A stretch of DNA of 59,175 nt, counting the filler. It is 6 parts of 6 records of this genome, joined end to end, with 100 filler letters (N's around TTAATTAATTAA, not from the genome) between each part and the next. Parts side by side here need not be neighbours in the genome. Positions count along the whole stretch, not along the records: positions 53,292 to 59,175 come from SRR20825019_1577; 5 more parts are not named here. The stretch is one strand, 5' to 3'. The notes under the pieces are model-generated. The model ran no database searches and was not told the DNA's origin. It worked only from the letters and a program-made list of their open reading frames with translations. Within the stretch, counting starts at the first letter, position 1, and every line of letters begins with the position of its first letter. A program made the translations under genes and the position numbers. Shown piece by piece: positions 21,342 through 59,175 of the stretch.

Positions 21342-21342
21342 A

Positions 21343-38114: not shown

Positions 38115-38177
38115 CTGAGTAACTGGCAGAGGTTTCTTGGAACATTAATTATATTTACGCATAGGAGAGCATTAAGC

Positions 38178-40949: not shown

Positions 40950-41139
40950 TCCGTGGCCAGAAGCTAGAAAGCTTAACGACTGCCTGCAGAACGTCCCCAG
41001 TGCGAAGTATAGATATTTCCTTCTTTGAAATTCATTTTTTTCAATAGCAATGTTAACAGAAGCTTGCTGTTGGCGGAGGGGAACAGCAAGGTATTATTGT
41101 GTTTTGAAGGACAGGCTTGGCCGCCTGTCCGGTGTTGAC

Positions 41140-42010: not shown

Positions 42011-42352
42011 CTCGGTGCTCGGTGCTCGGTGCTCGGTGCTCTGGTTGGTCACGGGCCAACGGTGGTCACGGGCCACGCGGCGAATCACGGGCCGCCCCAT
42101 AGACCACGGGCTATGAAGCAGATCACAAGCTGCAAGCGGTCACGGGCCGCGGCGCACTCGAGGCGCCTGGAGTGCACGTGCTCCGAGACAATCACGGGTG
42201 TCTCTGCAGATCACAGGCTGCCTAACACACACGGGGTGTTCGCACTCACGGGGTGCCGCACACACGGGGTGCCTCTTATCATGTGGTCTTCCGCCCCTTT
42301 TCTCTCCGCTCATCTCTTCCTCAATCCGTCCGTCCGTCCGTCCGTCCGTCCG
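42011..42352. repeat. Repeat cluster: (CTCGGTG)x4, a degenerate ~18-bp array with a CACGGG core, and a (TCCG)n microsatellite at the contig end
   Basis: CACGGG at 42050, 42067, 42086, 42105, 42141, 42193, 42230, 42247 and 42263. Confidence 0.7.
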
Positions 42353-42452
42353 NNNNNNNNNNNNNNNNNNNNNNNNNNNNNNNNNNNNNNNNNNNNTTAA
42401 TTAATTAANNNNNNNNNNNNNNNNNNNNNNNNNNNNNNNNNNNNNNNNNNNN
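42353..42452. other. Artificial contig spacer
   Basis: N44-TTAATTAATTAA-N44. Confidence 0.98.
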
Positions 42453-42542
42453 CCAGCATGCTGGCGGTGCAGGTAAGGTCTGATATCACAGCCTCAAGAT
42501 GACAAACAAAACCCGGTGCCCGACATTTGGAATGAGGGAAGC

Positions 42543-43838
42543 ATGCTGACAGTTCCCTACTACACGGTTGCCAAAACAGCGGATGTCGTTCGACCTGCAA
42601 CGATCATCCGCGATACCGAGTGGGATCAAGTGAAGAGCCACAGTCTCCCTACCGGTTTCCACTATCTTGTCTATGACGGATGCAGAATTGTTGAGCCGGT
42701 CTTATTCTATCTCCATGACAAATGCGTCCGGTCCTCGAGAATTCCCTCGGTAGGAAACACACAAACAGCTTTAACCTATGACCTGTATGAGTGGTTCACA
42801 TATCTAGGCTTGATTCATAGGGATTGGGACGCTGCTTGTTTCGATGACATCGAACTATATCGCGACAAGCTTTTATGCAGCAAATCACCTAAAACCGGTA
42901 AACGATATGCTGTTGCAACAGTACGCCGCAGGCTTGGCACCATCGTTGACTTCTATGAATGGGCGTCCAGACAAGGCTTGATTGAATTTGATGCGAAAGA
43001 GTTTTACGAAGAACGTATCAAACCCCGAAATTATGCAATTACCCGGATGGCGCATGTTCAATCCGGCGACAATACGGTCAAAACGAGTAAACTGCTTCCG
43101 AGAACCTATAACAGTGAAACGGCTGAGGCATTTTCTCCCGAAGCTCTTCAACGAGTGCTCGCCGAACTTGGTTCGATCCCCGGAGACAAAGCTGATCGTC
43201 GTCCATGCAGAGACCGGCTCATTGCCAGCCTTGCTGTCGCCACAGGAATGCGACTTGACGAATGCGCCAACCTCACTCTGTCGCAATACAAGAATCTCAA
43301 GAAAGATGGTAGCTACAGCAACGTCGCATTGCCTCTTTACAAAACCAAAGGCCTGAAGCCGCGCACAGTTGTCGTACCGGGCATAATCCATGATGATCTG
43401 CGACATTACGTAAAAACAGAACGGGCCCGTGCGGTTCGACGCGCGAAAACATCTGTCGAGGCTCTTTTTGTCAATCACGCCCATGCCAAAAGAAATCCGG
43501 GTGAAGCAATGACAGCTCATTCCATCTGGCGCCACTTTCAGCGCGCGGTTCTGAAAGCCGGTCTTGTATGCCCTTCCCATAAAAACGGCACAACCAGCCC
43601 CTTAGACAGACCTGAAGCCCTGCACAGCTTTCATCACCTCCGTCATACCTTTGCGGTTACCATGTATTTTGAACTGGTTCGCGCGGGCAAAGCAGAACCC
43701 TGGCTCAGCCTGCGAACATTGCTTGGCCATAGTCACATAACGACAACAATCAATACATATTTGCGGAGTGTACAAATTCGGGAAGCACTCATGACAGATA
43801 CCCTGAATACGTATCTCAAGGCCCTACGCGATGGCTAG
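42543..43838 (+). CDS. Tyrosine recombinase (GinA-like)
   Basis: Catalytic set TGMRLDE (R), TKG (K), HHLRH (HxxR), LLGH and TTINTY (Y); RBS-like GAGGGA before ATG 42543. Confidence 0.9.
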   Translation: MLTVPYYTVAKTADVVRPATIIRDTEWDQVKSHSLPTGFHYLVYDGCRIVEPVLFYLHDKCVRSSRIPSVGNTQTALTYDLYEWFTYLGLIHRDWDAACFDDIELYRDKLLCSKSPKTGKRYAVATVRRRLGTIVDFYEWASRQGLIEFDAKEFYEERIKPRNYAITRMAHVQSGDNTVKTSKLLPRTYNSETAEAFSPEALQRVLAELGSIPGDKADRRPCRDRLIASLAVATGMRLDECANLTLSQYKNLKKDGSYSNVALPLYKTKGLKPRTVVVPGIIHDDLRHYVKTERARAVRRAKTSVEALFVNHAHAKRNPGEAMTAHSIWRHFQRAVLKAGLVCPSHKNGTTSPLDRPEALHSFHHLRHTFAVTMYFELVRAGKAEPWLSLRTLLGHSHITTTINTYLRSVQIREALMTDTLNTYLKALRDG

Positions 43839-45687
43839 AAAGCGCATGGACAGATCTTTTCTCACGTATCGCCCGGGTGCGGCACCTGCCTTCGACAGGA
43901 ACAACCTGGCCCGTCCGGAAAAGGAAGAGAGAGAATACGGGGTTATCCAAAAGCTGTCACCTGACGGAAAACTGTGTCAACTCACGCTAAACTGTCCCCG
44001 TACCGCAAAATCCAACCGCGGCAGTGCCCAGATCAATGTCAGCGACGATTGGCTGAAAGCCGAACATCTGTCTGTTCCGTTTGCTACGGCCATTTTCTCG
44101 CATATTCGCAAGTTTGGTCCCTCTACCCAGGTCAACAAGGTTCAAGCTCTCAATCGCTTCTTTGCTTTTATGTGCGAACAGGGAAAAGCACATTTTAAAC
44201 TGTCGGATCTGACCACAACTCTTTTTAATGAGTACATTTTCTGGCTCGACACCCAACAGCTTACAAGCAAAACGAAAGCCGGGTTAATCTCCCCACTCCG
44301 TGTTGTATTGCACTATCTTAAACAAAATCCACAATATACAAGCGAAGTCCCTGGGGATGCTTATATCCAGCCAAATCCCTGGCCTGGAATAAACGAGCAA
44401 ATTGCTCATCGACCAATTTTGGCTATCACCGATCTTGTAACGATTGAGCGCGCCTGCATCAAAGAAATGCAGACATGGATGCGCAAATGGGAAGAAGGAA
44501 ACGACTTTATTAAATCAGGTAGAGAACGCCTGCAGGCGGGTGCTTCACCCACCGAGCATAGACTTGAAACATTGCTGGCAATCATTGAAGACCGCTATGG
44601 TGGCTATGTGACGAACAGCAAACAATTCTTTGCTGACGGCGATGGCCGGCGACGACAAATCGAGTTTTTCGGAGGGATCAAGGGTATTGCTCCGTGGCTG
44701 TATGCAACAAAGCGCTCTCTGGTCCCGTTTGTCGTGATGATGGCAATCAGGACGGCCTTCAATCCGGAAACCATACTGGCTTTACGAAAATCCGCCCTTC
44801 GGGAGAGCTCGTTACTTAAAGGAAGTGCCGAACTGGCGCCGAGATATCGGGTGGTCGGCGGGAAGAAACGCGCGCGAGGCGATCAGGTTCGAACCTATCC
44901 TCAGGATAGCACAGAGATTGATAGCCCGATTTCCATTTTCAACAATGTCGGAAAGCTGACCCGTCGCCTCCCAAATGCCGAGCACGATCCCGACCATGAT
45001 ATGCTCTTCATATTTCAGGGCAGAAATTACGGAAGGGCTCATCATTATCTCAATGCAACCTGCACCTTCCCTAACGCACTTTCTGCTTTCAGAAAAGATA
45101 ATCAACTCCCTGATTTCAGCTTGTCGAACATTCGCCCCACCATCTCGGAGATTGTCAATCAACTGAGTAACGGGGATATCAAGGCACAACAGGCAATTCT
45201 CAATCATTGGCACACAGAGACAACGGAAACGCATTATGTGTCGGAAGCGGCCCGGCACCGCAGACGGGAAACATTGGGCAATCTTTTGAACCGACGGGAA
45301 CGATATATCCGGACATCTGGAAAGTCCGATGACCGTATCAATCTTCCAAACAATACAGGTCGCGCCGCAACGCCGGGGTTTGAATGCACCGACCCCTATG
45401 ATTCTCCTCTCGCATCCCAGTCCACAGGACAACTCTGCACCGCCTGGGGAGAGTGTCCGCTATGTCCTCGCGCCGCCGTGATCCCCGACAATTCACACGC
45501 TTTGGCACAACTGCTTCATCTCCACAATGCCATTGAGAAAGCACGTCACGATTTACCGCCAGGTCGCTGGCTATATTGGTCAACGGTACAAAAGGCCCTG
45601 AACAATTGGCTCAGCAAGTTCCCGGCCAAGAGTGTTTGGCATGAGGCCAAAAACATTCAAAGAACCCACGCCATTCTGATCGAATGA
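43831..45687 (+). CDS. Divergent tyrosine-recombinase-like protein (GinB-like) with C-terminal Cys cluster
   Basis: RTAFNPET (N at the first Arg position), SNIRPT, LNH and THY; FECTDPYDSP...CTAWGECPLCP; overlaps the upstream gene. Confidence 0.7.
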   Translation: MARKRMDRSFLTYRPGAAPAFDRNNLARPEKEEREYGVIQKLSPDGKLCQLTLNCPRTAKSNRGSAQINVSDDWLKAEHLSVPFATAIFSHIRKFGPSTQVNKVQALNRFFAFMCEQGKAHFKLSDLTTTLFNEYIFWLDTQQLTSKTKAGLISPLRVVLHYLKQNPQYTSEVPGDAYIQPNPWPGINEQIAHRPILAITDLVTIERACIKEMQTWMRKWEEGNDFIKSGRERLQAGASPTEHRLETLLAIIEDRYGGYVTNSKQFFADGDGRRRQIEFFGGIKGIAPWLYATKRSLVPFVVMMAIRTAFNPETILALRKSALRESSLLKGSAELAPRYRVVGGKKRARGDQVRTYPQDSTEIDSPISIFNNVGKLTRRLPNAEHDPDHDMLFIFQGRNYGRAHHYLNATCTFPNALSAFRKDNQLPDFSLSNIRPTISEIVNQLSNGDIKAQQAILNHWHTETTETHYVSEAARHRRRETLGNLLNRRERYIRTSGKSDDRINLPNNTGRAATPGFECTDPYDSPLASQSTGQLCTAWGECPLCPRAAVIPDNSHALAQLLHLHNAIEKARHDLPPGRWLYWSTVQKALNNWLSKFPAKSVWHEAKNIQRTHAILIE

Positions 45688-45688
45688 C

Positions 45689-47590
45689 ATGAACCCTATA
45701 CAAACCGCTACAGCATATCATCTCATGGCAGCGGAAGATCTGCGGGAAACGAGGATCAACCGCCATTCCCGCTGGTCTGATGACAGATGGTTCTTCGACA
45801 ATCTGACGCCAGGTCACGACGCTGCAGCCAGCACCATACGCTGGGATTTCATCATGCCGGACGGCAGTAAATTCGTAGACCCGAAATGGGCGATATTGCT
45901 CGACGCACATCGTCGACTGGTCTGGTCACTGATTGTCGACCCAAGACAGCGGCATAGATACAAGCCGGGCTCAATGGGCAAACTCTCCCGACGGGTTCTT
46001 TATCTTGCTCGCTGGATGGGCAAATCCGGCTACGCTCATTTCGGCGCGCTTGATACCTGTGCTTTTGACCAGTATCTCGACAACCTGCTCATCGACAAGC
46101 AGAATAAAGCCAATCTCAACGCCGTGTATCTTATGGAACATCTCGCATTGCCTGTTTCTCTGGGATATCAGGCCCCTGTTCTGGCAAAGGCGGGAATTCC
46201 TGTACCGGGCAGCGCCCCCTGGCATGGCATGACAGCGTTCGAGGTCGCGAAACAGCTGGCAGGCAGGGAACAGGGATACGTCCCGCCAGTCCCCGACCCC
46301 ATATTTTTGCACATAATGACCAGCGCCTTGTGCATGCTTGACGCGGCAGAGGATATTATTTTACAGGCTCGGCATTTCGCGGACACCAAAGACCTGCAGG
46401 TTGCCGAAAAACATGCACCAGACAGGAAGCATTTACGCGATCGCATGAACTCTCTGACTGACGCGTGCCTGATCCTCATCCAGGGATTGTCGGGTATCAG
46501 AGTGAGTGAATTGCTGGGACTGCAAGCCTCTGATACGCCACTGGCACAAAATGCCTTGCCCGATTGCATAAAAATTGAACCGTCGGCCAGCGGTCTTCAT
46601 GAGATATTTTATCTTTCCGGTCATATCTACAAGACGACGAAAACGCCTCGCCCGGCCACCTGGGTCACCGGACTGCGCCCGGTCGGGAGTGATCACCTTC
46701 CTGTTCCGGTCAAGGCAATATCTGTCATCGAAAGGTTGTACGCCCCCTGGCGCACTCGAAGAAACATCAACGAACTGATTGTCGGTTTTAGCCGAACAAA
46801 AAGCCTGACCAAAGATGTGAAAGCCCATACTTTAAGTTGGGTCAATCGCTGCCAGAGAAGGTTCTTTGTCAGAAGCGGTGTAAAGGATTGGACTGTTACT
46901 TCTCATCAATGGCGCAAATCCTTCGCCCAATATGTCATCCGAAGCGACAGCTGCATGCTCCCGGTGCTTCAGGAGCATTTCAAACACATCAGTATGGCGA
47001 TGACCGAACAGGGATATATAAATGCGGATCCAGAACTGAAACAGATCCTTGATGATGCTGCGGTTCAGTCAACGGTCTCTCTCATTGGCGAAATGATTGC
47101 CGGCAGAAAAAACGTCACGGGGGCCCTCAGTGGAAAACTGAAAGAGACTGCGAATCAACTCGGAAGATCTCTGGACAACCGTCCCGAAGATGACCGCCGA
47201 CGCGATATTGAAGAACTGGTTCGTACCTCGGGTATACGGGCACATGATATTCGCTGGGGAGAGACATCCCTCGGCACCTGTCTCTTTCGACAGGGAACCG
47301 GAAATTGCACGGTTGGCTGTTCAGCCCGATGGGTGATCAGTGCGCCGCTATGGTCGGCCGCCCGCCCCGATTTGTGTTGGGAATGTCAAAACCTTGTCCT
47401 TGACGAGACTCATTTGCCCTTCTGGAAAGACCGCCGGGCCAAATTGCAAGATGATCTGAAAACGGCAACAACCAATGATGACTTTGCTCTCGCACAACTC
47501 TGCAAACAACGCCTCGAACAATGTATTATGGTGCTAAACAAGCTTGAAACCACCGAAGCTGCAGCTGCAGAAAACAACAATCCCGGGTAA
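45689..47590 (+). CDS. Tyrosine recombinase (GinC-like) with C-terminal Cys cluster
   Basis: Motifs SGIRVSEL, HQWRKSFA, HFKH and TEQGY; C-terminal CLFR...C...CWECQN. Confidence 0.85.
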   Translation: MNPIQTATAYHLMAAEDLRETRINRHSRWSDDRWFFDNLTPGHDAAASTIRWDFIMPDGSKFVDPKWAILLDAHRRLVWSLIVDPRQRHRYKPGSMGKLSRRVLYLARWMGKSGYAHFGALDTCAFDQYLDNLLIDKQNKANLNAVYLMEHLALPVSLGYQAPVLAKAGIPVPGSAPWHGMTAFEVAKQLAGREQGYVPPVPDPIFLHIMTSALCMLDAAEDIILQARHFADTKDLQVAEKHAPDRKHLRDRMNSLTDACLILIQGLSGIRVSELLGLQASDTPLAQNALPDCIKIEPSASGLHEIFYLSGHIYKTTKTPRPATWVTGLRPVGSDHLPVPVKAISVIERLYAPWRTRRNINELIVGFSRTKSLTKDVKAHTLSWVNRCQRRFFVRSGVKDWTVTSHQWRKSFAQYVIRSDSCMLPVLQEHFKHISMAMTEQGYINADPELKQILDDAAVQSTVSLIGEMIAGRKNVTGALSGKLKETANQLGRSLDNRPEDDRRRDIEELVRTSGIRAHDIRWGETSLGTCLFRQGTGNCTVGCSARWVISAPLWSAARPDLCWECQNLVLDETHLPFWKDRRAKLQDDLKTATTNDDFALAQLCKQRLEQCIMVLNKLETTEAAAAENNNPG

Positions 47591-47597
47591 TGAAACC

Positions 47598-47981
47598 ATG
47601 TCACCCACATCTGTTGAAGCCGCATTCATGATGGCGATTGATCGGCTCCTCGCGCGTCATGCTCTGAAAGCCAATTCCAGCAATACACCCAAAATCAACA
47701 AAAGTATGGTTGCGCGCGAAGCCGGGCATAGCCGGACAACACTGTACAAATATCCCAAAGTGCTTGAGAGACTGAAATCATTTGAGGCAACAGCAAAATC
47801 ATCAAAACAAAATGAGATCATGAGTCTGCGTCAGGAAATCGCCAAATTAAAACAGGAAACCGGGACGGCGAGAGACCTGATGGCAGCAATGCTGCTTCAA
47901 ATGCGCGAGATGGAACGACAAACGGCTTCAAGAATTCGCCAGGCAGTACGTATGACACAAGCAGAAGGTTCTGATACGTAA
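47598..47981 (+). CDS. Small HTH plus coiled-coil accessory protein (GinD/TnpC-like)
   Basis: HTH-like VAREAGHSRTTLYKYP followed by a coiled coil; last gene of the recombinase operon. Confidence 0.7.
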   Translation: MSPTSVEAAFMMAIDRLLARHALKANSSNTPKINKSMVAREAGHSRTTLYKYPKVLERLKSFEATAKSSKQNEIMSLRQEIAKLKQETGTARDLMAAMLLQMREMERQTASRIRQAVRMTQAEGSDT

Positions 47982-48141
47982 TGGGCCTTCCACGACACAG
48001 GAAGACTCTTAACAAGCCTTTTACATCAATCGTGGTGTCTACGCCAAGCCTCTCCTAATGCACATGTCTCCCATCTTCCATAAATCATCCCACTTACGAC
48101 AGATCACTTCCGCAGATCAGCAGAGAGGCGCCTCCCCAAGT

Positions 48142-48813
48142 TCATGCCTTTGCCCAGTCTGCCAGATTGACAAATAGCCCGAACCAGATTGACCATAGGC
48201 CAAGGGCGACGAAAACAAAGCCGGTCAACCAGCGGCGCGGACGCATCCAGTCTGCAAGTCCGACAAGAAGCGAAGTAAGTTGCGGCACGACCGAAAACGG
48301 TACCAATGGAAGTGACAACGACAGCGCAAAGACCGCCATCAGAATGAAACCCTTTGCGGCGGAGCCTGTTGCGGTTGCGGCCCCCATCAGGCCGAAAAGG
48401 ATCGGCGCGGCGCAGGCGGGAATATTCAGGCCAAACGCAACGCCCTGAACCCATGGGTTTTTCGTGATCCGCCATCCGACTGGCGCAATCCGGATACGCC
48501 GCCGAAACCGTCCCCCTGCACCGAACAGGAAGACAATTCCGATGACCATATAGAGTGCCCCAAAGATCAGCCATGCCCCGGTCTGAACCCCGATCATGCG
48601 TTGTCCCAGCATGACGATCACGCCGCCGAAACCGCCCATGACCAGAAGGCGTGCGAGCATGAATGCAGCTAGAGCCCCAACCCGCATGCGCAGTGAACGG
48701 TCACACTGGCTGTTGAGAAACAGCATATGCGCGCCAATCGTGCAGGGCTCGATAAATCCCAAAAATCCCAAGCCCAGCGCAAGAAAGATCAGGTTGAACA
48801 GGTCCGGTGTCAC
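48142..48813 (-). CDS. CcdA/DsbD transmembrane-domain protein, last gene of the mer operon
   Basis: About six TM segments with two membrane cysteines (EPCTIG, IPACAAP); GTG start with AAGGA RBS 32 nt after the merA stop. Confidence 0.7.
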   Translation of the reverse strand: MTPDLFNLIFLALGLGFLGFIEPCTIGAHMLFLNSQCDRSLRMRVGALAAFMLARLLVMGGFGGVIVMLGQRMIGVQTGAWLIFGALYMVIGIVFLFGAGGRFRRRIRIAPVGWRITKNPWVQGVAFGLNIPACAAPILFGLMGAATATGSAAKGFILMAVFALSLSLPLVPFSVVPQLTSLLVGLADWMRPRRWLTGFVFVALGLWSIWFGLFVNLADWAKA

Positions 48814-48845
48814 GTTTGTAAATTCCTTATCATCGTCGCATGGTG

Positions 48846-50267
48846 TTACCCGGCACAACAGGACAGTCTGGCGACATCTCTCGCAAAGCCCTGAGCGGCA
48901 AGTTTCAGGCCCTCGACTGTGGTCAGATAGGGAAAAATCGTGTCGCCAAGTTCTTGGGCGGTCATCCCAAACCGTATGGCCAGCGCCATTGTCTGAATGC
49001 TGTCACAGCCCTCGGGTGCCAGTATCTGAGCGCCCAGCAAGCGGTCAGTTGCTTCATCTGCAATGAGTTTTATCAAACCGCGTGTATCACGGGCGGCAAG
49101 TGATCTGGGCACCAGATCAAGCGGCACGACAGATGTCTTGACCACAAAGCCCCGTTTCTGTGCCTGAACCTCGGAGAGACCTACGCCAGCAACTTGTGGA
49201 TCAGTGAAGACAACCCAGGGCATCGTTGTGTTGTCATATGTCTGTTCGTCACGGTTATAGGCATTTATTGCCGCAAGTTTGGCGCCATAAGCTGCCATAT
49301 AAACGAACTGGTCGCGCCCGGTCACATCGCCCGCAGCATATACATCAGGACGCGTCGTCCGCATGTACGCGTCCACAACAATTCCGCCATTCGAATTTAC
49401 TTCAATTCCGGCCGTTTCGAGGCCTAATCCGTTTGTATTCGGCTTACGGCCTGTCGTTACCAGGATATGTTCAGCAAAAAGAACCTCGGCCTGGCCATCA
49501 ACGTTAATGGTCAGTTCCGTTTTATCATTCTTCCGTTCAACCCTCTCGTAGGTGAGGCCCGTGCGAACGGATACCCCTTCATTCCTTAACTCCTGAGTGA
49601 GCGATGCAGCAATTTCCGGTTCTGCTTCGGGAAGAAGCCGTGACCGTGTCACCAGCGTAACCGAGCTGCCGAGCCGTGCAAACATCTGAGCCAGTTCACA
49701 ACCGATATATCCGCCGCCAATCACGAGAAGTGATCGTGGCTGCTGATCAAGTTCAAGTGCCGTTGTACTGGTCAGACAGGGGACATTCTCAATGCCTGGA
49801 ATATCGGGAAATGACGGGGATGTGCCGGTTGCAATGATTGTCTTTCTTGCAACAAGCTTTTTGCCGTCAAGCAGAAGACCGGTGTCATTAAATATAACGT
49901 CCCCTTCGAGATAATCGATACCATCATATTCGGGCAGCAGATCGATATATTTCTTCTGACGCAAACCGGAAACCAGATCCTCTTTAGCCTTGATCAGGGA
50001 CTGCCAGTCAGCGACATGAGCGTTTCCGGAGAGGCCGGGAAAACGCGCAGCGGCCCCCGCACCATGCACGGCCTCTGCGGCACGGATCATGGTTTTGGAG
50101 GGAACACACCCGACATTGACGCATGTGCCGCCAATCATTCCCTTGCCGATAAGTGCGACCCTTGCGCCCTGTTCAGCGGCCGTAATCGCCGCCGAAAAAC
50201 CGGCCGAACCCGCGCCGATGACAGCAAGGTCATATTCCTGTTTGTCGGTCGAACAACAATTGTTCAT
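48846..50267 (-). CDS. merA: Mercuric reductase without an N-terminal NmerA domain
   Basis: Motifs GAGSAG, GGTCVNVGCVPSK, GGGYIG, FVYMAAY, FPYLT and C-terminal LSCCAG. Confidence 0.95.
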   Translation of the reverse strand: MNNCCSTDKQEYDLAVIGAGSAGFSAAITAAEQGARVALIGKGMIGGTCVNVGCVPSKTMIRAAEAVHGAGAAARFPGLSGNAHVADWQSLIKAKEDLVSGLRQKKYIDLLPEYDGIDYLEGDVIFNDTGLLLDGKKLVARKTIIATGTSPSFPDIPGIENVPCLTSTTALELDQQPRSLLVIGGGYIGCELAQMFARLGSSVTLVTRSRLLPEAEPEIAASLTQELRNEGVSVRTGLTYERVERKNDKTELTINVDGQAEVLFAEHILVTTGRKPNTNGLGLETAGIEVNSNGGIVVDAYMRTTRPDVYAAGDVTGRDQFVYMAAYGAKLAAINAYNRDEQTYDNTTMPWVVFTDPQVAGVGLSEVQAQKRGFVVKTSVVPLDLVPRSLAARDTRGLIKLIADEATDRLLGAQILAPEGCDSIQTMALAIRFGMTAQELGDTIFPYLTTVEGLKLAAQGFARDVARLSCCAG

Positions 50268-50268
50268 A

Positions 50269-50520
50269 TTATTTTCCTTTCCGGGTGGTTGGTTGTGTAT
50301 CGGTCTCGCAGCAAGCGCGCGCACGGGCTCGTTGTCGGTAGCCGTACAGTGCCAGGGCAATGAACAGGAGTAATCCGGGTATGAGGACATAGTCTATCCA
50401 GCCCAGCCATGCCGAGAGTCCAAGGGCCCCGAACGAGACAACAAGGATTGGTGTGAAACAGCAGATCACAGCAAAAATTGTTCCGACGATCCCGGTTTTG
50501 AAAATGGTGTTGCCACGCAT
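50269..50520 (-). CDS. merF: Mercury transporter MerF
   Basis: Motifs AVICCFTPILV and WIDYVLIP, with C-terminal CC. Confidence 0.88.
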   Translation of the reverse strand: MRGNTIFKTGIVGTIFAVICCFTPILVVSFGALGLSAWLGWIDYVLIPGLLLFIALALYGYRQRARARACCETDTQPTTRKGK

Positions 50521-50523
50521 TAT

Positions 50524-50853
50524 TTAATCCCGCGCCTTGGCCGGATAACCGGCATTTGTCGAAGCGATCCCGATGGTTTCCACATTGGCGACTGACGGGT
50601 CGAAGGTGACAGTTGCGGTTTTTTTATCGAAGTTGACGTCTACGGCCTCTACGCCGGTGACGGCTTCCATCGCGGTTTTGACCGTCACCGGACACAGGGC
50701 GCAGGTCATGTTTTCGATGTCGAAAACGGTTGTTTGTTCATCCTGCGCTGTGGCGCTGGCAGCAAGCGCCGCAGTTGGGAGGTAGCCTCCCGGATATATG
50801 ACAGCCAGTCCCAGGGCAAATGCCCCGGCCAGAATAATGCCTGTTCGTTTCAT
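50524..50853 (-). CDS. merP: Periplasmic mercury-binding protein
   Basis: Signal peptide; HMA motif MTCALCPVTV; TNAGYP. Confidence 0.88.
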   Translation of the reverse strand: MKRTGIILAGAFALGLAVIYPGGYLPTAALAASATAQDEQTTVFDIENMTCALCPVTVKTAMEAVTGVEAVDVNFDKKTATVTFDPSVANVETIGIASTNAGYPAKARD

Positions 50854-50864
50854 CTCGATTTCTC

Positions 50865-51254
50865 CTAATAGAACAGCGGTGCCCACCAGTTGATTGTCAG
50901 GGCCAATCCCACCAGCACGGTTGAGAACCACAGGGCGGCTTTGGTGATCAGTGCGGATTCCGGACGGGCGCAGTAAGACCCGTCGTCACAAGCTGGCTTG
51001 GTCTTGAAATAGACCTGCCAGAACCCCAGCCCGATAAATATCAGAGCCACCGTCGCGAAGAGTGGTTTGTAAGGTTCAAGAGCCGTCAGATTGCCGATCC
51101 AGGCCCCCGACACCCCCAGCATCAGAAGCAGGAGTGGTGCGACACAGCAGGCGGATGCAAGAATGGCTCCGACCACTCCACCAGTTGCAAGCAGACCTCT
51201 TTTTGTCTGCTTCCCGTCATCCGACAACAGGTCGTCCGATTTGATATCGTTCAT
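50865..51254 (-). CDS. merT: Mercury transporter MerT
   Basis: Motifs ASACCVAPL, GAWIGNLTALEPY and CDDGSYC. Confidence 0.92.
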   Translation of the reverse strand: MNDIKSDDLLSDDGKQTKRGLLATGGVVGAILASACCVAPLLLLMLGVSGAWIGNLTALEPYKPLFATVALIFIGLGFWQVYFKTKPACDDGSYCARPESALITKAALWFSTVLVGLALTINWWAPLFY

Positions 51255-51283
51255 GTGATTTACCTCGAATTCGATTCGCAGTT

Positions 51284-51314
51284 AAGATACAGTCTGTAGC
51301 TGCTACAGATTAAA
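51284..51314 (-). promoter_or_regulatory. MerR-type promoter/operator for merTPFA
   Basis: On the minus strand, TTTAAT-19 bp-TATCTT encloses the dyad TCTGTAGC-N-GCTACAGA (51293-51309). Confidence 0.8.
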
Positions 51315-51329
51315 GAAGGTTTTGATCAC

Positions 51330-51746
51330 ATGGACGATCACAATTCCGGGAGGCGACTAAAGCGAGCAGAATTGTCGAAGGTGACAGGCTGTCATCTTGA
51401 AACGATCCGCTATTATGAAAAGACCGGCATGATGCCCGATCCGCGGCGCAGCAAAACGGGTTACAGGCTGTATGACGAAACACATGTTTCCCGGTTGCGG
51501 TTTATCCTGCGCGCCCGTGATCTGGGTTTTTCGATTGAAGATATCCGGGGGTTGCTGACTCTTATAGATGGTCAGTTGCAAACATGTTCGGAGGTCAAAC
51601 AGCGTACGGAAAGCCATCTTGCTGACGTGCGCACAAAAATTGATGACCTGAAACGGATCGAACAGGTTTTGGCGGAAACGGCAGCTCAATGTTCAGGAAA
51701 AGATGTGCCTGAGTGCCCTGTTCTGGAAGCCTTGTTCCACGTTTGA
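51330..51746 (+). CDS. merR: Hg(II)-responsive MerR regulator
   Basis: ETIRYYE HTH, RARDLGFS and three Cys ligands (TCSEV, QCSG, ECPVL); divergent from merT. Confidence 0.88.
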   Translation: MDDHNSGRRLKRAELSKVTGCHLETIRYYEKTGMMPDPRRSKTGYRLYDETHVSRLRFILRARDLGFSIEDIRGLLTLIDGQLQTCSEVKQRTESHLADVRTKIDDLKRIEQVLAETAAQCSGKDVPECPVLEALFHV

Positions 51747-52039
51747 AGTAGTAGCTTGTGAGTTCGGCTTCATCAAAAGGACAAAGAGGCCAGTTATCAA
51801 TTTTTACAACATTGTCAGCATGCCAACAAATGAAGTAAATTTCAATTATTCCCAAATCCTTGAGCTAAATATCAACAAAAACTTATGATGGAATGCCAGA
51901 TTACAAAAAAGGATACGCCCCAAGTAATATATAAAATAGGAAGTATTTAGCAAGATAAACCAAAAAAGTTTCTGTTTATATAATTAAATCGGCAAGAGTA
52001 AAATATTGGTTTTTCGGTTTGTTCCACAGTAAAACCCCT

Positions 52040-52447
52040 CTACCTCTTATGCGTCTCTTTATCATTGATCCCAGAAAGAACGCCACATTCCTCTACATCC
52101 CGTCCATCTTTGCAACTTTCTCTTAGTGAAACGAGTTGTATTTCTAGCGCTTGTAGAGTGGCAATCTGTGATTGCACATGAGATATGTGATCATCAAGTA
52201 AAACGTTGACCGCATTACAAGGCTGATGAGGCTCATCCTGATGCTGCTGTAGTTCGGAAATCTCCGCCAGAGATAGACCCAGAATTCTGCAGCGACGGAT
52301 AAATCTCAACCGTTGACCATGCTTTTTGGTATAGACGCGGTAGCCGTTTTCTCTCCGCCCTACCGACGGCAATAGGCCCTGCTGTTCATAGAAGCGGATT
52401 GTTTGTGTGTCGATCTCTACTAACCGTGCCAACTGACCAATGCGCAT
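52040..52447 (-). CDS. cadR: Cd(II)/Pb(II)-responsive MerR-family regulator
   Basis: Motifs MRIGQLA...QTIRFYEQQGLL, FIRRCRILGLSL, PCNAVN and SC...ECGVL. Confidence 0.8.
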   Translation of the reverse strand: MRIGQLARLVEIDTQTIRFYEQQGLLPSVGRRENGYRVYTKKHGQRLRFIRRCRILGLSLAEISELQQHQDEPHQPCNAVNVLLDDHISHVQSQIATLQALEIQLVSLRESCKDGRDVEECGVLSGINDKETHKR

Positions 52448-52464
52448 TTGTCCTCTCCACCCTA

Positions 52465-52495
52465 TTGACCTTATAGTTACTATATAGTTTTGAAT
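52465..52495 (+). promoter_or_regulatory. CadR/PbrR-type promoter-operator
   Basis: TTGACC-19 bp-TTGAAT with the dyad TATAGT-T-ACTATA (52472-52484). Confidence 0.7.
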
Positions 52496-52527
52496 GGTAA
52501 CACTGTAATTTAAAGTGGAACCATGTC

Positions 52528-53191
52528 ATGAGTATATTCTGTGATAGCCTTTCTGGTAGTGATGCACCTCCGCCATCGAATACCGATGAACCGAACGCCT
52601 TCGAAGCATCAGAGCAATGGATCAGTATTTATGCAGTGCCAAAAATGGACTGCCCGTCAGAAGAACGAATAATCCGCCTCGCCCTGAATGGCCTTAAGGA
52701 GATTCAGACCTTGTCCTTCGACTTGTCGAACCACCAGTTGGAGGTCGTACACAATGGCGAAGTTGCCGCTATCACTACAAAGTTGGAGACCTTGGGGCTA
52801 GGCGCTACGCTTCAGGAAAGCACCGCAGCCGATCCAGAGACCATCAAGACCGCCGAAGCCTCAACTACCTCTATCAAACAAGAAGCAGGCACCCTGCGCT
52901 GGTTGCTTGGCATCAATGCACTCCTATTTCTAATAGAAATGATTTCCGGCCTGGCAGCCCAGTCCACTGGCCTAATTAGTGAGTCTCTTGATAATTTCGC
53001 AGATGCGGCGGTATACGGGCTCGCCCTTTATGCTGTTGGGCATAGCATAAGAATGCAGGTGCGTGCCGCGCATCTTGCTGGTGTTCTGCAGCTAATTCTG
53101 GCTGTTGGAGCACTAGCGGAGGTGGTGAGACGCTTTGTATTTGGCAGTGAGCCTGAATCGTTGGTGATGATGGCTATCGCATTCGTCGCAT
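52528..53191 (+). CDS. Heavy-metal cation transporter (HMA-like domain plus CDF-like TM region), 3' truncated
   Basis: Motifs KMDCPSEE, LLGINALLFLIE and ESLDNFADAAVYG. Confidence 0.8.
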
Positions 53192-53291
53192 NNNNNNNNN
53201 NNNNNNNNNNNNNNNNNNNNNNNNNNNNNNNNNNNTTAATTAATTAANNNNNNNNNNNNNNNNNNNNNNNNNNNNNNNNNNNNNNNNNNNN
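53192..53291. other. Artificial contig spacer
   Basis: N44-TTAATTAATTAA-N44. Confidence 0.98.
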
Positions 53292-53379
53292 GATTCACTT
53301 TGATAAAGATCAACTGCTATAAAGTTTTGAAGAAACTACTAAAATGTGAGGCCGCTGATCTCTCAGCTGGTCCACCATG

Positions 53380-53560
53380 GCCGCGCCCGCGGCGCGGTTC
53401 GTTGGCGGGCCGATTACCTACAATCGGTAGGTGTGGGGCGGCCCGGTCCGGTCCGCCGGGGCCATTCGAATTGCGCCGCGGCCGGCGGCGCCCGGCCCGC
53501 GGCCTCAACTCCTGCCTCGTGAGCCTGACCAGCGCACGGCAGCCCGGGCCGTCACACTCG
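53380..53560. promoter_or_regulatory. GC-rich island upstream of the helicase gene
   Basis: Same GC/CpG-rich style as on the other eukaryotic contigs; a candidate 48-nt intron (GTATGT...CTAAT...TAG) lies at 54032-54079 upstream of the ATG. Confidence 0.35.
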
Positions 53561-54142
53561 TGGGAGAACATGATCGGAAGTTTCCGTTCGGCAACTCGGA
53601 ACGCTCGGCTGCCGACCGACTGGAGGTGGGAACCGCCGCCATCTCATCGAGCCGCAGTGTTCTTGTTGAGGCTTTGTGAGCCCATCACGCAAGGCTGTGA
53701 CTCCCGAGGCAGCGCTCGCTCAGACCAGTCTCCTTGGTTCCATCAGTCATGCATATTTTTATACCAGGCTGTTGCGGAACGAAGACTTCCGCTTGCTCAG
53801 TCCCGCTCGCTGTGCCGCCCCCCTCTGGTCAACCATGTCTCGACTCTCCAGATAGTGCCTGTCGGGGCGCGTCGGGTGCCGGCCCCTATACTCACCCCAC
53901 CCCCCAAACCATCACACCAAACATCCCGCTCTCCTCCACCCTCCAAGTAGGTTGAGGTTTTGAATATGCACACCAAGACGATGACTATCATCAAACGTCG
54001 AAGGACGATATCAAAATTATAGGGATTATTGGTATGTCGTCCGTAGAGTGTACGAGTGTCTTTGTCTGCTAATATGTAGCTTGAAGAACACTGCGGTTAC
54101 GTCAGTGGAGAGAAGAGCTTTTCGGAGAAGAGAGAAGAGAAT

Positions 54143-57100
54143 ATGGCGAAGTGCGGTGAAGATTTCGCCGTCAACAAGGGGGAGGGGCACAAGGGCAAAA
54201 AGGGAGGGAAATGGGCTGACACGGTTGCAAGCAAGGGTGAAGATCAAGATGAAGACGCACCCAAAACGAGCGCTCATCAGAGCCATAAGTCAGAGTATTG
54301 GAGGGATCCGGCTGCGCAACAAGAACGGCGCCGGCTCTATAAAAAGACGGCCTCACAGCAAGGTCGAGAGGATCGGTCAGATGAGATGCACGCGTCGCAC
54401 TTGTTTGGTTGCGACCGCGTATCACATATGGCCAAGGAAGGTCTCATTCCAAACGATGAGGACATACTTGAACTTGTAAGGAATCAATTTAAGGGCCTTG
54501 ATGTAAAGAATGTTCGAATGACGAATGCGACAACGAATGCCGAAGTCCATACGGCAATAGCCAAGGAATTCAACGAAGTAGTGAATGACAAAGAGAAGAA
54601 GATCACTGCATTCACCACGAAGCAAGGGTGTGAGGTCACGAAATCAGAGATACAAGCGCGTGCGAAAGGGGAGATAAAGCTGGCGAAGGAGATGGGTCTC
54701 ATGCGCTTTAAGGAGGTTCATAAGCACTTCAAGGACGTGGCCAAGGCAGTGGAATTGGATGGCCGTGTTGTTGGTAATAACACTAAGACCTTCGAGACTG
54801 TCAAGGAGGCCCGCGAGACACTGCGGAAAGAAGCTAGAGCGAAAGCTGAGGCGAAGAAAGAGCTTTCCAATGGCAACGTCCCTAAAACAATTGCCGATAA
54901 GCTTGTCGATGATAAGGTGGCCAGCCGCGATACCCCTGGTCCGGTGCGGGTGTACATTTGCAAGCGCGATAACTATAAAGAAGACGTCCACAAGGCCAAT
55001 CAGAGGCTGGATAAGTATCGTTATCTTGACCGGCACGGCAAGGACACGCCAAGAATGCTGCGATCGGCCTTGGAGAAAGACGGGGTGAAGATGGACAAGT
55101 ACCAGATTGGCCACGTCTACCCTCGAGCCGGGAGCACGGATAAGAGCATCAACAGTGTCAAGAATCTGTTCATCCAGCATGCAACAGATAATGATAAGCT
55201 ATCATCTCTTCCCGCAAGCTCGGGTGAGCTTTTGGCTGCCGGTCGTTATGCCCTTGTTCTGCATCGGTACGGCCTTGGGCGAGTGATTGTGGATCCAGAA
55301 AAGCTACCTGACGAAATGAAGGATGGGCACGACAAATTCGAGAAGCCTTGTTTTGATCGTGAAGTGCGTGTGAATGTCATTTCACCGGAACCTCCTTACG
55401 ACAGCCACGGGTGGCATCGGATTTGTGACTTAGAGCCCGGAGACCACGTGCGCTCGGCGGATGGTGGTGCGGCTCGCGTGATGCGGGTCACTTGCAGCCA
55501 CGTTGGCAGTGATATCCTGATGTGTGGCCAGGCCGACAATTCCACAGATCCGCTGTGGCTCACACCAGGCCATCCACTGAGGATCAAAGGCAAATGGATC
55601 CGGCCAAGCGAACAATGGGAACGCATTTCGCGCTATCAAGACGCTGTGTACAACATCTACGTGGAGCCTCCCAGTCCCATATGCATCAGCGCTTGCCCTG
55701 ACGGCGCCGTGCAGTTCGAAGCCAGTAGCCTGGGACATCCCACACCAGGCATTGCGGGCGAGGCGAACGACTCTTGGCTGCAGGCCTCATCAGCCCAAGC
55801 TGGCGTTTGTAAGTGGCTTCTTCAATTCGATGAGTTCCACGTGAACCTGACTTATCGCGGTTCCTTGGCCGACGTGGAGGCTGCCCGCGACGCTGGCCAC
55901 CACTATCGCCTTATTCCTCTCTCTACACCACTGGCAACCTCCATGGCTCGTACTCAGATTTGTAAGGTTCGTACAAAAAGGGGTGTCCGCCGGTGTGAAA
56001 TCATTGATGATCCGACAATCAATGATGATGATGGTGACATGCACGCGGTGTTTCTGGTAGCTGAGTCCGAAGATGTCCTTGAGCGCGCTGCCCGCATCAT
56101 GGATACAAACGATGGCGCAGCCAAGATTCTACAAGCACGAGAGCGGCTCCCTTCTGCGAAGAGCAAGGCGGAAGTCATTGAAATGGTAGCACGAAATGAT
56201 ATTGTCGTGATTTCGGGCCCGCCTGGCAGTGGGAAAACCACCCAAGTTCCTCAGTACCTTCTTGAATCCGGGCTTGTCCCTCCTAATCTTGGAATAGTGT
56301 GCACGCAGCCTAGGGTTGTTGCCGCTCGTGAAGTTGCCGGCCGTGTCGCGACTGAGCGTGGCGTGGTTGTTGGGAGCGAGGTTGGATACAACGTCCGATT
56401 TGACAATATGACATCGCGGGAGACAAGGATGCACTTTGTTACGGACGGGATCATTCTACGTGAAATCAACATGGACCCCCTTCTCTCCAAGTACGGTGTT
56501 GTAATCGTGGACGAGGCGCATGAGCGCGGAAAGAATTTAGATCTGGCGCTGGCACAGCTGAAAAAAAGTGTCGTTGAGCGAAAAAGAAACCACGAAGCTG
56601 ACCCCTCTTTGCCGCTGCTGCGTGTTATTGTGATGAGCGCGACCATGGACACAGACAAGTTCTCCTCCTTCTTCTTCGGTGCCCCAATAGTCCAGTTCAC
56701 TGGCCGGGCGTTCACTGTGAGTGAACGATTCATCGGAGGTGGCCTGCCACCACAAGCATGGGCGAATCCGGAGTCCGTGGCCAGTTCAGCGGTGGATGCA
56801 GTACTTACGATAAGCCGGGACGAGGGCCACCAGCCTGGTGATGTCCTAGTCTTTCTTCCAGGCACCGCCGAGATCGAGGCGGCCGTGAGCATGATGCGTC
56901 ACAAGTTCAAGAAAAAATCTGATGCCCTTCCGCTGGTGATCCTTCCGCTTTACAGTAAGCTTCCCAAAGAGCAACAGAAAAAGGTTTTTCGGCCGGTGTG
57001 TGACGGGAATCGGAAGGTGGTGTTTTCAACGAATGTTGCCGAGACCAGCGTGACGATCGATGGAATTGTTCATGTTGTGGACTCTGGTCTCAAGAAGGAA

Positions 57101-59146
57101 GTGGTCCATGACCCGGCAACCCGAAGTGATTGCCTCCAAACTACGCCAATATCGAAGGCGAATGCCAAGCAAAGGCGTGGTCGCGCTGGTCGCACCCAGC
57201 CCGGTCATTACTACAAGCTTTATAGCCAACACACCTACAGTGACATGCCGGACGCCACTGTGCCTGAAATTCTTCGGACCAGTGTAGCAGGGCTTGTCCT
57301 CTACCTTGCTGCCCTTGGCCAGTCCCCTCGCACCGTCGAGTTCCTTGATCCGCCTCCGGCTAATGCAGTAGCCGATGCGGATGTGCTACTGAAGGAGATC
57401 GGCGCAATGGACAGCTGTGGAGCGATCACCACGCTCGGCTGTGAAATGGAGAAGCTGCCTTTGGAGCCCTGTCTTGCGCGTTCAGTCATTGCTGCCAACG
57501 ATCGTGGTTGCGTCGACGAGGTCCTTGTCATAGTCGCAATGCTTTCTTCCAAGGGTGACCTTTTTATCCGTGGTGATAATCTCGACGAGGGTACCAAACA
57601 ACGAAAGGAGTCCCTTGTCCACATGTTCGGCGATCATATCACCTTTCTCAATGTTTTCAATAGATATGTTGAGGTTTATTTTGATGAAGGACCTGATGCT
57701 GCCCAAGCGTGGTGTAAAGATTTCGGTGTGAATGTCCAGACATGCGATGAGGTGTGGACAACATGGTGTCAGCTTGTCCATGATGTTGAAGAAAGTGGTC
57801 TGTACGTATCATCTGCCCATGGAGATGGCCCTGTAGCAAAGGAATACCAGCGGACATTTCCACGAAAACATCAATGGACCTGCTTATGCAAGTGCGCCAA
57901 CCGTGAATACCTGTCACAATGCAGTCGCTGTGGATCGGACCGGCCTTCCCTGCAAGACGTTGCTCGACAAATGGAGGCTGTGCGACGCAGAAACAACGTT
58001 GGCTCGGATCCGCACTACACAGCGGTGCGTCGTGCGTTTATAGCGGGCTTCTTTATGAACGTCGGGAGGCCTAGTGGTCGGCACAACACTTATTACCACT
58101 TCAGGACAGGTGCCATGATGATGCCCCATTTCACCTCCACGCTGCGCGGGGTGCGAAGCTGGCAGGGCAGTACCGAAATGAAGATTGATGCAGTGGTAGG
58201 AATGATACTTCAAAAGATAGAGAAGCCATCATCCAGTGTGGATGTACAGTCTTGGAACGTATCCGATATGATAGACCAATCCCATCAACCCCTGCAGGAG
58301 GACGGCGTGTATAATGACACCGTACTATTCCACTCCTCTTCGATTTCAAGGCCCGGCAAGGTCATGCGTGGCTGTATGATGATCGACAGCAGGTGGCTGG
58401 CAGATGAAATTCCTTCTCTCTTCGCCATGGTGAACAACGTGGTGGTGGACAGGGTGATATTCAGCGGAGTCGCCACCCTGACTGCCAGTGGGCTCAGGCG
58501 AGTGGTCCGCAAAGGGCTCCTTCATACCTCTTTGGAGGGGATCCAGCGGGCCACTTTGCTGCCTCGCCGGAATGCCGTACTTGTGGTTGGAGAAATCCAA
58601 GAGCATGTGGACCAGGAAGTGCATCGGATCACTGAGGCTGGTCGCACATACCCTGAGGAGACTCGGGTATTTCCGGATTTCTCTTCGTTTGCAGCCACAG
58701 CTCTGATCAGCAAAGACAACAACTACTACAAGACCATCATGTGCGAGTATGAGTGTATCGTATATCCGCAATGGGAGAGAGGAAGCAAAGCCAGCAGTAC
58801 GGCTCTGCAAATGAAGGGGCAGCCGGCTGACCTGGATGCGCTAGAGGAGTATCTGAGGCAGAACATGAAGAAGTGGCATTTTGTTGGCATGGAGGCGGCA
58901 TGGGCCGCTGATCCCGGAGGAAAGTGCATTACAACGTGTACTATCCCGAACTGCATGGTGGGTAAGCTGATTGGTAAGAAGGGGAGCAACATTTCGCAGC
59001 TGAAGGATCAACACGCCGAGGTCAAGATCGTAGTCAAGAAGAACTTGGGCGCTGGGCAGTGCCCGGTTGTTATCACTGGTGGTAAGACAGCCGTGGATAC
59101 TCTGTGTGTACACCTCTGTACCACGTATGGAGCTCAGGTGGCATAA
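54143..59146 (+). CDS. DEAH-box RNA helicase fusion: HNH-like x2, Hint (Vint-type), DEAH/HELICc/HA2, RanBP2-type zinc finger, OB-like region, KH
   Basis: Helicase motifs GPPGSGKTT (aa 692), TQPRVVAA, TDG, DEAH (aa 790), SAT, FLPG, STNVAETSVT and QRRGRAGR; Hint motifs CF (aa 403), LTPGHP, VYNI and SLGH (aa 532); zinc finger WTCLCKCANREYLSQCSRC; KH motif IPNCMVGKLIGKKGSNI. Confidence 0.88.
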   Translation: MAKCGEDFAVNKGEGHKGKKGGKWADTVASKGEDQDEDAPKTSAHQSHKSEYWRDPAAQQERRRLYKKTASQQGREDRSDEMHASHLFGCDRVSHMAKEGLIPNDEDILELVRNQFKGLDVKNVRMTNATTNAEVHTAIAKEFNEVVNDKEKKITAFTTKQGCEVTKSEIQARAKGEIKLAKEMGLMRFKEVHKHFKDVAKAVELDGRVVGNNTKTFETVKEARETLRKEARAKAEAKKELSNGNVPKTIADKLVDDKVASRDTPGPVRVYICKRDNYKEDVHKANQRLDKYRYLDRHGKDTPRMLRSALEKDGVKMDKYQIGHVYPRAGSTDKSINSVKNLFIQHATDNDKLSSLPASSGELLAAGRYALVLHRYGLGRVIVDPEKLPDEMKDGHDKFEKPCFDREVRVNVISPEPPYDSHGWHRICDLEPGDHVRSADGGAARVMRVTCSHVGSDILMCGQADNSTDPLWLTPGHPLRIKGKWIRPSEQWERISRYQDAVYNIYVEPPSPICISACPDGAVQFEASSLGHPTPGIAGEANDSWLQASSAQAGVCKWLLQFDEFHVNLTYRGSLADVEAARDAGHHYRLIPLSTPLATSMARTQICKVRTKRGVRRCEIIDDPTINDDDGDMHAVFLVAESEDVLERAARIMDTNDGAAKILQARERLPSAKSKAEVIEMVARNDIVVISGPPGSGKTTQVPQYLLESGLVPPNLGIVCTQPRVVAAREVAGRVATERGVVVGSEVGYNVRFDNMTSRETRMHFVTDGIILREINMDPLLSKYGVVIVDEAHERGKNLDLALAQLKKSVVERKRNHEADPSLPLLRVIVMSATMDTDKFSSFFFGAPIVQFTGRAFTVSERFIGGGLPPQAWANPESVASSAVDAVLTISRDEGHQPGDVLVFLPGTAEIEAAVSMMRHKFKKKSDALPLVILPLYSKLPKEQQKKVFRPVCDGNRKVVFSTNVAETSVTIDGIVHVVDSGLKKEVVHDPATRSDCLQTTPISKANAKQRRGRAGRTQPGHYYKLYSQHTYSDMPDATVPEILRTSVAGLVLYLAALGQSPRTVEFLDPPPANAVADADVLLKEIGAMDSCGAITTLGCEMEKLPLEPCLARSVIAANDRGCVDEVLVIVAMLSSKGDLFIRGDNLDEGTKQRKESLVHMFGDHITFLNVFNRYVEVYFDEGPDAAQAWCKDFGVNVQTCDEVWTTWCQLVHDVEESGLYVSSAHGDGPVAKEYQRTFPRKHQWTCLCKCANREYLSQCSRCGSDRPSLQDVARQMEAVRRRNNVGSDPHYTAVRRAFIAGFFMNVGRPSGRHNTYYHFRTGAMMMPHFTSTLRGVRSWQGSTEMKIDAVVGMILQKIEKPSSSVDVQSWNVSDMIDQSHQPLQEDGVYNDTVLFHSSSISRPGKVMRGCMMIDSRWLADEIPSLFAMVNNVVVDRVIFSGVATLTASGLRRVVRKGLLHTSLEGIQRATLLPRRNAVLVVGEIQEHVDQEVHRITEAGRTYPEETRVFPDFSSFAATALISKDNNYYKTIMCEYECIVYPQWERGSKASSTALQMKGQPADLDALEEYLRQNMKKWHFVGMEAAWAADPGGKCITTCTIPNCMVGKLIGKKGSNISQLKDQHAEVKIVVKKNLGAGQCPVVITGGKTAVDTLCVHLCTTYGAQVA

Positions 59147-59151
59147 GCACA

Positions 59152-59175
59152 GGGGGGGGGGGGGGGGGGGGGGGG
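59152..59175. repeat. Terminal poly-G run
   Basis: G homopolymer running to the window end; may be a sequencing or assembly artefact. Confidence 0.6.

Follow-up and report, generated by a model that had tools for sequence, protein, structure and literature searches.

A Vint-type Hint domain upstream of a DEAH-box RNA helicase: a candidate self-processing precursor encoded by a eukaryote-type gene

Introduction

Hint domains occur in eukaryotes in three settings, namely hedgehog/Hog proteins, Vint proteins and inteins, and in Hog and Vint proteins they form a disposable C-terminal module. Bacterial polymorphic toxins with an internal HINT domain have the toxin C-terminal to Hint, a secretion or filament N-terminus and an immunity gene following. 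Here, we describe an open reading frame (ORF) of 1667 residues (protein P0001; positions 54143-59146, plus strand, as are all features within it) in a stretch of 59,175 bases assembled from several contigs (herein referred to as the window), in which a Vint-type Hint domain precedes a DEAH-box RNA helicase. We lean, with some reserve, toward the reading that this ORF is a real, rare gene of eukaryote type for a divergent DEAH-box RNA helicase that is made as a self-processing precursor.

According to the survey of Burglin (2008; PMC2362128), Vint proteins are probably processed within the cell, and new N-termini are easily gained by Hog domains; the chemical steps of inteins are summarised in PMC8616854. 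In the main texts of the openly available literature, to which all our statements on published work refer, no account was found of a Hint domain with a DEAH helicase or of a Hog domain with an RNA helicase, in agreement with the initial annotation of this locus, which knew of no described protein of this architecture. The component families (Vint Hint, DEAH/RHA helicases and KH) are all known, and it is the combination of a Vint-type Hint with a DEAH helicase and a KH domain that seems to be rare and undescribed. In P0001 and one relative, P0009, a complete RNA helicase is directly preceded by a Vint-type Hint domain whose catalytic residues are intact; should this Hint domain be active, they would be the first case of an RNA helicase produced in the form of a self-cleaving precursor.

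Results and Discussion

A Vint-Type Hint Domain Lies within a Single Open Reading Frame

The ORF is open without internal stop up to its TAA codon (59144-59146), and an in-frame stop lies 66 nt 5' of its ATG. Pfam profile scans, scored against the gathering cut-off of each family, together with motif inspection and structure prediction, resolve it in order into a poorly conserved N-terminus of 402 aa, a Vint-type Hint domain, a linker domain, a DEAH core, a winged-helix and ratchet region, a zinc (Zn) knuckle, an OB fold and a KH domain. The initial annotation had described one uninterrupted frame of 1667 residues with a Hint domain, a DEAH helicase with intact core motifs, a Zn knuckle and a C-terminal GxxG KH domain in that order, and all of this is borne out by our analysis, as is the placement of the Hint domain and its catalytic residues.

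The Hint core spans aa 403-537 (55349-55753) and contains C403 (the putative nucleophile), T474 and H477 (the block-B Thr-x-x-His), VYNIYV at 502-507 and SSLGH at 528-532. The Pfam Vint family (PF14623) matches aa 402-510 with E=7.1e-9 and 36.1 bits, above its cut-off of 27. In an alignment of nine rows (aa 395-665 of P0001, P0009 and seven small Hint proteins), a Cys is aligned with C403 in eight rows, the ninth (P0014) beginning downstream of this column; all nine rows share the block-B His-Pro, and eight have the Thr. An AlphaFold2 (AF2) model of aa 395-665 computed on this alignment is usable (mean predicted local distance difference test score, pLDDT, 79.2) and consists of a beta-rich Hint core (approximately aa 398-537) and a compact second domain (aa 572-665), with a stretch of low confidence (aa 538-571) between them. 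When this model was compared with the Protein Data Bank (PDB) by Foldseek, as the initial annotation had suggested, the top match was a solved Vint domain, the Tetrahymena crystal structure 8r2c (E=3.8e-8, TMt 0.67, all 169 target residues), which is also the sole PDB sequence match for aa 1-660 (E=7.3e-4). Tetrahymena BIL2 (6y75) ranks second (E=5.2e-5), mini-inteins follow, and hedgehog (1at0) appears at rank 41 (E=0.011). Judged from profile, alignment and predicted fold, the Hint domain is real, of Vint type and equipped with its catalytic residues. A fold search of BFVD returned matches at the level of Hint only, such as Hint proteins of Cafeteria roenbergensis virus; this result speaks neither for nor against an origin in giant viruses.

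P0001 resembles the VWA-Vint proteins (PF14623, 8r2c; PMC2362128) in its Hint subtype, by Pfam, sequence and fold alike, and in its N-terminal Cys and TxxH; it differs in that Pfam finds no VWA or Vwaint domain upstream (in the whole protein or in aa 1-403) and in the RNA helicase of about 1100 aa that follows the Hint. With hedgehog and Hog proteins it shares a variable N-terminal domain followed by Hint and an expected N-S acyl shift at the Cys, whereas hedgehog is a distant fold match, Pfam Hint (PF01079) is not among the matches of P0001 and a helicase rather than a sterol-recognition tail follows the Hint. Also in contrast to hedgehog and Hog, inspection by eye reveals no signal peptide, and any processing would thus take place within the cell, in line with what has been proposed for Vint proteins. 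Inteins in helicases and Prp8, as treated in PMC5784728, share the Hint fold, and mini-inteins are strong fold matches; however, the Hint of P0001 sits between an unrelated N-terminus and a helicase rather than in a conserved host motif, and it carries no homing-endonuclease insert. By inspection, no C-terminal Asn plus Cys/Ser/Thr junction after the Hint is conserved between P0001 and P0009. Because such a junction is lacking and the Hint is not preceded by helicase sequence, the domain is not an intein within a helicase, and we rejected the intein reading for want of both a C-terminal splice junction and insertion into a host motif. Polymorphic toxins likewise have a Hint in mid-protein that parts a variable module from the remainder, whereas the order is reversed in P0001 and no secretion, delivery or toxin domain was found in it by Pfam or PADLOC. 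The BUBL protein of Tetrahymena, whose BIL2 is the second-best fold match, offers a eukaryotic intracellular Hint acting on an upstream domain, according to PMC8616854; BIL2 is, however, flanked by ubiquitin-like domains and ends in Asn, and P0001 has neither feature.

The Hint and Helicase Are Conserved Together

The region aa 1-660 was searched with HMMER against 1,835,955,588 representative proteins at a threshold of E<=0.001, and nine proteins were retrieved: in one (P0009) the match extends from the Hint across the linker and on into the helicase, a second (P0012) matches the N-terminal module alone (aa 47-188) and seven match the Hint only, their close cluster-mates or members being named from a Pavlovales haptophyte and Pelomyxa. 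P0009 (1348 aa; E=2.3e-58 in this search; in a cluster of two, on contigs of about 5.2 kb) is 41% identical to P0001 over 985 columns, in an alignment that begins 13 residues N-terminal of the Hint Cys and takes in the Hint, the linker domain, the entire helicase and the Zn knuckle before reaching the OB fold, with a separate alignment for the C-terminal KH; over Hint and linker the identity is 48%. Pfam recognises Vint, DEAD, Helicase_C, HA2, OB and two KH domains in P0009. Its Hint has an insert of about 50 residues (residues about 35-99) between the first strand and the remainder that is absent from P0001. Only about 28 residues precede the Cys of P0009, and because it lacks the N-terminal domain of 400 aa, what is conserved as a unit is Hint and helicase together, and the front end would be a variable cargo. 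Although the two proteins are only 41% identical, both have kept the nucleophile Cys as well as the Thr and His of block B, which argues for selection on catalysis.

It is fair to infer from the intact catalytic residues that the protein cleaves itself at P402|C403. We hypothesize that C403, aided by T474 and H477, would carry out an N-to-S acyl shift at the P402-C403 bond to give a thioester, which would be resolved by water or another nucleophile, so that an N-terminal fragment and a Hint-helicase fragment would come apart, as happens in hedgehog/Hog and has been suggested for intracellular Vint proteins. Together with its Zn knuckle and KH domain, the latter fragment would presumably act on RNA, and the N-terminal piece (402 aa in P0001, about 28 aa in P0009) may be an interchangeable cargo or pro-region. 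Such a variable front end fits the ready gain of new N-termini that is reported for Hog domains in PMC2362128. The variable N-terminus suggests cargo swapping, which would be relevant to protein engineering and to conflict biology.

Searches with other parts of the protein and in other collections add no further member. A word-indexed search with aa 390-660 found P0009 only (one of 1708 candidates), and the same kind of search with the whole protein gave seven matches, all HrpA-like or other helicases. With aa 660-1667, 5571 of 8000 scored candidates fell at E<=0.001, DEAH helicases, and the best 120 of these matches share 34-43% identity with P0001, are named DHX16/cdc28, Prp22/DHX8 and Prp16, and come from fungi, animals, plants and protists; none of these 120 has Vint or KH. 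As P0009 is not among them, the word-indexed prefilter evidently misses true relatives. Viral contigs yielded no relative by protein or by pattern; a single-protein scan of metagenome contigs gave ten pattern matches, none of them a relative, and a pattern scan of prokaryote genome contigs gave seven stretches, all chance matches of 9-14 residues.

The Helicase Is Complete and Appears Divergent

Between Hint and helicase lies a compact strand-helix-strand-strand-helix domain (aa 572-665; 55856-56137), which is kept in P0009 and well modelled by AF2, with 10-residue block means of 82-96 and a single block at 60. It matches no Pfam family and has no usable match in the ESM Atlas; it may adopt an R3H- or KH-like fold. 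The DEAH core (RecA1 and RecA2, aa 676-1018; 56168-57196) has motifs I to VI intact: GPPGSGKT (692-699), TQPR (721), DEAH (790-793), SAT (832), FLPG (904), TNVAETS (963) and QRRGRAGR (1010). Both Pfam matches, DEAD at aa 676-836 (E=1.2e-6) and Helicase_C at aa 891-1018 (E=1.7e-13), exceed their cut-offs, and the PDB sequence matches of the core are Prp22, DHX8, Prp43, Prp16 and DHX16 at about 1e-116 to 1e-107. The HA2 winged-helix and ratchet region follows (aa 1082-1168; 57386-57646), with HA2_C passing at aa 1108-1168 (E=9.5e-9) and HA2_N weak (E=0.29).

The Zn knuckle (aa 1245-1263; 57875-57931), W-x-C-x-C-x3-N-x6-C-x2-C, lies between HA2_C and the OB fold and is present in both P0001 and P0009 with the same one-residue first spacer. 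RanBP2-type fingers follow the pattern W-x-C-x(2,4)-C-x3-N-x6-C-x2-C. The initial annotation had named a RanBP2-type finger after HA2; the knuckle and its position stand, kept as they are in P0009, while the type name derives from the pattern, Pfam Zn_ribbon_RanBP (PF00641) having no match at E<=10 on aa 1225-1296 of P0001 and only a match of E=0.09, below cut-off, in P0009. The OB fold (OB_NTP_bind, aa 1295-1424; 58025-58414) scores below its cut-off (E=1.7e-4, 22.1 bits versus 29.5) and contains extra residues, 130 being spread over 83 profile positions; its counterpart in P0009 passes with 58.9 bits. At the C-terminus, a type-I KH domain (KH_1, PF00013; aa 1599-1652; 58937-59098) is recognised well above cut-off (E=2.5e-8, 34 bits versus 21.5), with its GxxG as GKKG at 1611-1614.

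The core is 40-42% identical to the spliceosomal DEAH helicases Prp2/DHX16, Prp16/DHX38, Prp22/DHX8 and Prp43/DHX15, with which it shares all motifs, HA2 and OB; P0001 differs from them by the Zn knuckle before the OB fold and by the KH tail. In a quick maximum-likelihood tree of 27 rows (the helicase regions of P0001 and P0009 and 25 proteins chosen by name from P0002-P0144; 761 of 3670 alignment columns retained; Prp43/DHX15 and other DEAH subfamilies left out), P0001 and P0009 form a separate, long-branched pair (SH-like approximate likelihood ratio test, SH-aLRT, 97) that joins none of the Prp2/DHX16, Prp16 and Prp22/DHX8 groups and, relative to the bacterial HrpA-like rows, falls within the helicases of eukaryote type. 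From these sequences, we take the P0001/P0009 helicase to be a divergent paralogue, not the orthologue of a housekeeping helicase.

Weighing the Self-Processing Precursor against Other Readings

Several observations weigh against a self-processing helicase precursor. Of the 166 positions of the Pfam Vint profile, only 1-95 are matched; about 1100 residues lie C-terminal to the Hint here, whereas Hint is the C-terminal module of known Hog and Vint proteins; and cleavage of P0009 would free only about 28 residues, unless its gene model has been cut short. The family consists of two lineages only, both on short contigs, and the full architecture, including the junction of N-terminus and Hint, is known here from one assembled contig, which terminates in an artefact-like poly-G run. 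The branches of the pair in the tree are long (2.34 and 1.27), such placements being unsure, and Prp43/DHX15 is not in that tree. Finally, no published demonstration of Vint autoprocessing was found, Vint being used in the domain sense only in Burglin 2008; for this same reason, P0001 would, if its Hint is active, be a simple system for finding out what Vint domains do.

The first three of these observations, together with the low confidence of the model in the Hint tail (aa 538-571), would equally be expected if the Hint did not cleave at all and served as a structural or interaction module of a protein working as a single RNA helicase of 1667 aa. We nevertheless regard an inert Hint as unlikely: the catalytic Cys, Thr and His are retained in both members in spite of their divergence, and the conserved sequence already sets in 13 residues ahead of the Cys, which is what one would expect of a cleavage junction that is recognised.

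The initial annotation went further and proposed that the helicase, KH domain and zinc finger sense foreign RNA and that Hint cleavage frees an N-terminal nuclease of HNH type as an immune or suicide effector, on the strength of two HNH-like motifs in the N-terminal 402 residues. The first lies in a conserved module (aa 47-188; 54281-54706; HASH at 83-86, KNVRM at 122-126) that has P0012 as its sole relative (203 aa; E=5.2e-6 by HMMER in the library, 35% identity and E=3e-14 by BLASTP) and shares invariant His and Asn residues with it. Since this homologue exists, the module is a real coding domain; aa 83-132, however, match no family in Pfam, PADLOC or PHROG and nothing in the PDB. The second (aa 315-351; 55085-55195; IGHVYP at 322-327, KNLFIQH at 340-346, TDNDK at 348-352) has His and Asn in the order expected of HNH_4 (PF13395), yet its scores of 12.7, 15.0 and 17.1 bits (E 0.13 to 0.0054, the highest on a piece of 143 aa) stay below the cut-off of 22 in every scan, and a Gly precedes the putative catalytic His. 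Over the N-terminal region, PADLOC gave no family, PHROGs only E>=0.065 and a PDB profile search only noise at E=0.66; the ESM Atlas gave no usable match for aa 40-402, and an AF2 model of aa 1-402 on a two-sequence alignment is unusable (pLDDT 38.8). An internal duplication was rejected, as the two segments are no more alike than shuffled sequence (local score 28, shuffle mean 29.3; 293 of 500 shuffles reach the score). Neither HNH motif is thus upheld at family level, and the claimed nuclease effector finds no significant family or profile match and its region is entirely missing from P0009. The long branch of the helicase pair fits fast evolution, and the different N-termini of P0001 and P0009 are what cargo-swapping conflict proteins would have; on the other side, no precedent was found for Hint cleavage gated by a ligand through a downstream helicase, and the gene is alone on its contig, so that genomic context is lacking. 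Release of a nuclease on sensing RNA therefore appears to us distinctly improbable; an N-terminal nuclease as such is possible but unproven, and an immune or suicide role is speculation.

A bolder extension would make the Hint-DEAH proteins a small eukaryotic family of pro-helicases, in which the thioester chemistry of the Hint would be controlled by the RNA-bound helicase, or would arm it, and would serve either to release a swappable N-terminal effector (possibly an HNH-like nuclease) in response to RNA or to attach the fragment covalently to a target, as a protist conflict or immunity device without described counterpart. We offer this as a long shot. The interest of the family, moderate as it stands, would become high if the Hint chemistry on its RNA helicase proved to be regulated or of a transfer type.

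It could also be that misassembly, a recent gene fusion or a pseudogene has joined the N-terminal 390 aa to the Hint-helicase part, and that no functional protein with the full architecture exists. The contig is short, with poly-G at its end, contigs of bacterial and of eukaryote-like character occur together in the source assembly, P0009 begins just before the Hint and codon usage in the N-terminal part correlates poorly with that of the rest (r=0.20 to 0.43). However, all pairs of ORF segments correlate weakly (r=0.16 to 0.45), and the codon-usage test hence does not discriminate; moreover, 402 codons are open in the frame of the Hint without a stop, GC content and third-position GC content (GC3) are similar along the ORF, and the N-terminal module has its homologue in P0012. 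We consider such an artefact very unlikely.

Least probable of all, and to our minds barely credible, is conjugation, in which the Hint thioester would pass the N-terminal fragment to a nucleophile (a lysine of a protein, a small molecule or a substrate bound to the helicase) as in BIL2/BUBL or hedgehog cholesterolysis: BIL2 is the second-best fold match and is reported in PMC8616854 to conjugate an upstream ubiquitin-like domain to lysines without ATP, and a Hint beside an RNA-binding machine may invite substrate-directed transfer, yet Pfam detects neither a ubiquitin-like domain nor any other recognisable tag N-terminal to the Hint in P0001 and the fold match holds at the general level of Hint only.

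The Contig of the Gene and the Remainder of the Window

The window is composed of six contigs (1-15484, 15585-21241, 21342-34309, 34410-42352, 42453-53191 and 53292-59175) joined by five spacers (15485-15584, 21242-21341, 34310-34409, 42353-42452 and 53192-53291), each made of 44 N, TTAATTAATTAA and 44 N (the N-runs of the last being 53192-53235 and 53248-53291). The contigs are of mixed origin and unrelated, and adjacency across spacers is meaningless. The 1667-aa ORF is the sole finding on the last contig (53292-59175; 5884 bp), which is bounded by a spacer on its left, and there is no usable genomic context for it because its neighbours in the window, all of them leftward, sit on other contigs. 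On the contig of the ORF itself, the 850 bp upstream (53292-54142) contain a very GC-rich island at about 53370-53560 with AT-richer flanks, and a TTG-started ORF of 216 aa without Pfam match lies at 53300-53950. The contig ends in a run of 24 G (59152-59175), 5 nt past the stop codon, which is probably a sequencing or assembly artefact with the look of two-colour chemistry. Other contig ends also consist of simple repeats, (CAGAAA)n at 15585-15614 and (CCGT)n at 42323-42352, as is typical of assembly breaks. Rfam and tRNA scans found no RNA family and no tRNA across the window.

Two of the other contigs (1-15484 and 34410-42352) are eukaryote-like, with 56-59% GC overall and 1-kb windows reaching 72%; the former contains an mTERF gene (7097-9034, minus strand), a Taxilin-like coiled coil (3988-5856) and a metallophosphatase (10185-12098), and the latter a zf-MYND gene (34895-35758). 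Unlike these GC-rich contigs, the contig at 21342-34309 (34% GC) looks like Bacteroidota-type bacterial DNA; it encodes a SprA-type (type IX secretion) protein of 2190 aa (21364-27936; SprA_N E=3e-166), and also has a TonB_C-like ORF and a metallo-beta-lactamase-fold ORF. The contig at 42453-53191 carries Pyr_redox (48846-50390, minus strand) and MerR (52040-52447, minus strand) genes, an HMA/cation-efflux ORF interrupted by the contig end and three tyrosine-recombinase-like genes arranged head to tail (42516-43838, 43831-45687 and 45689-47590). As they are located on another contig, the MerR, HMA/cation-efflux, Pyr_redox and three recombinase genes were rejected as genomic context of the helicase gene. 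The recombinase trio (42516-47590) is reminiscent of what we take to be the bacterial elements named "recombinase in trio".

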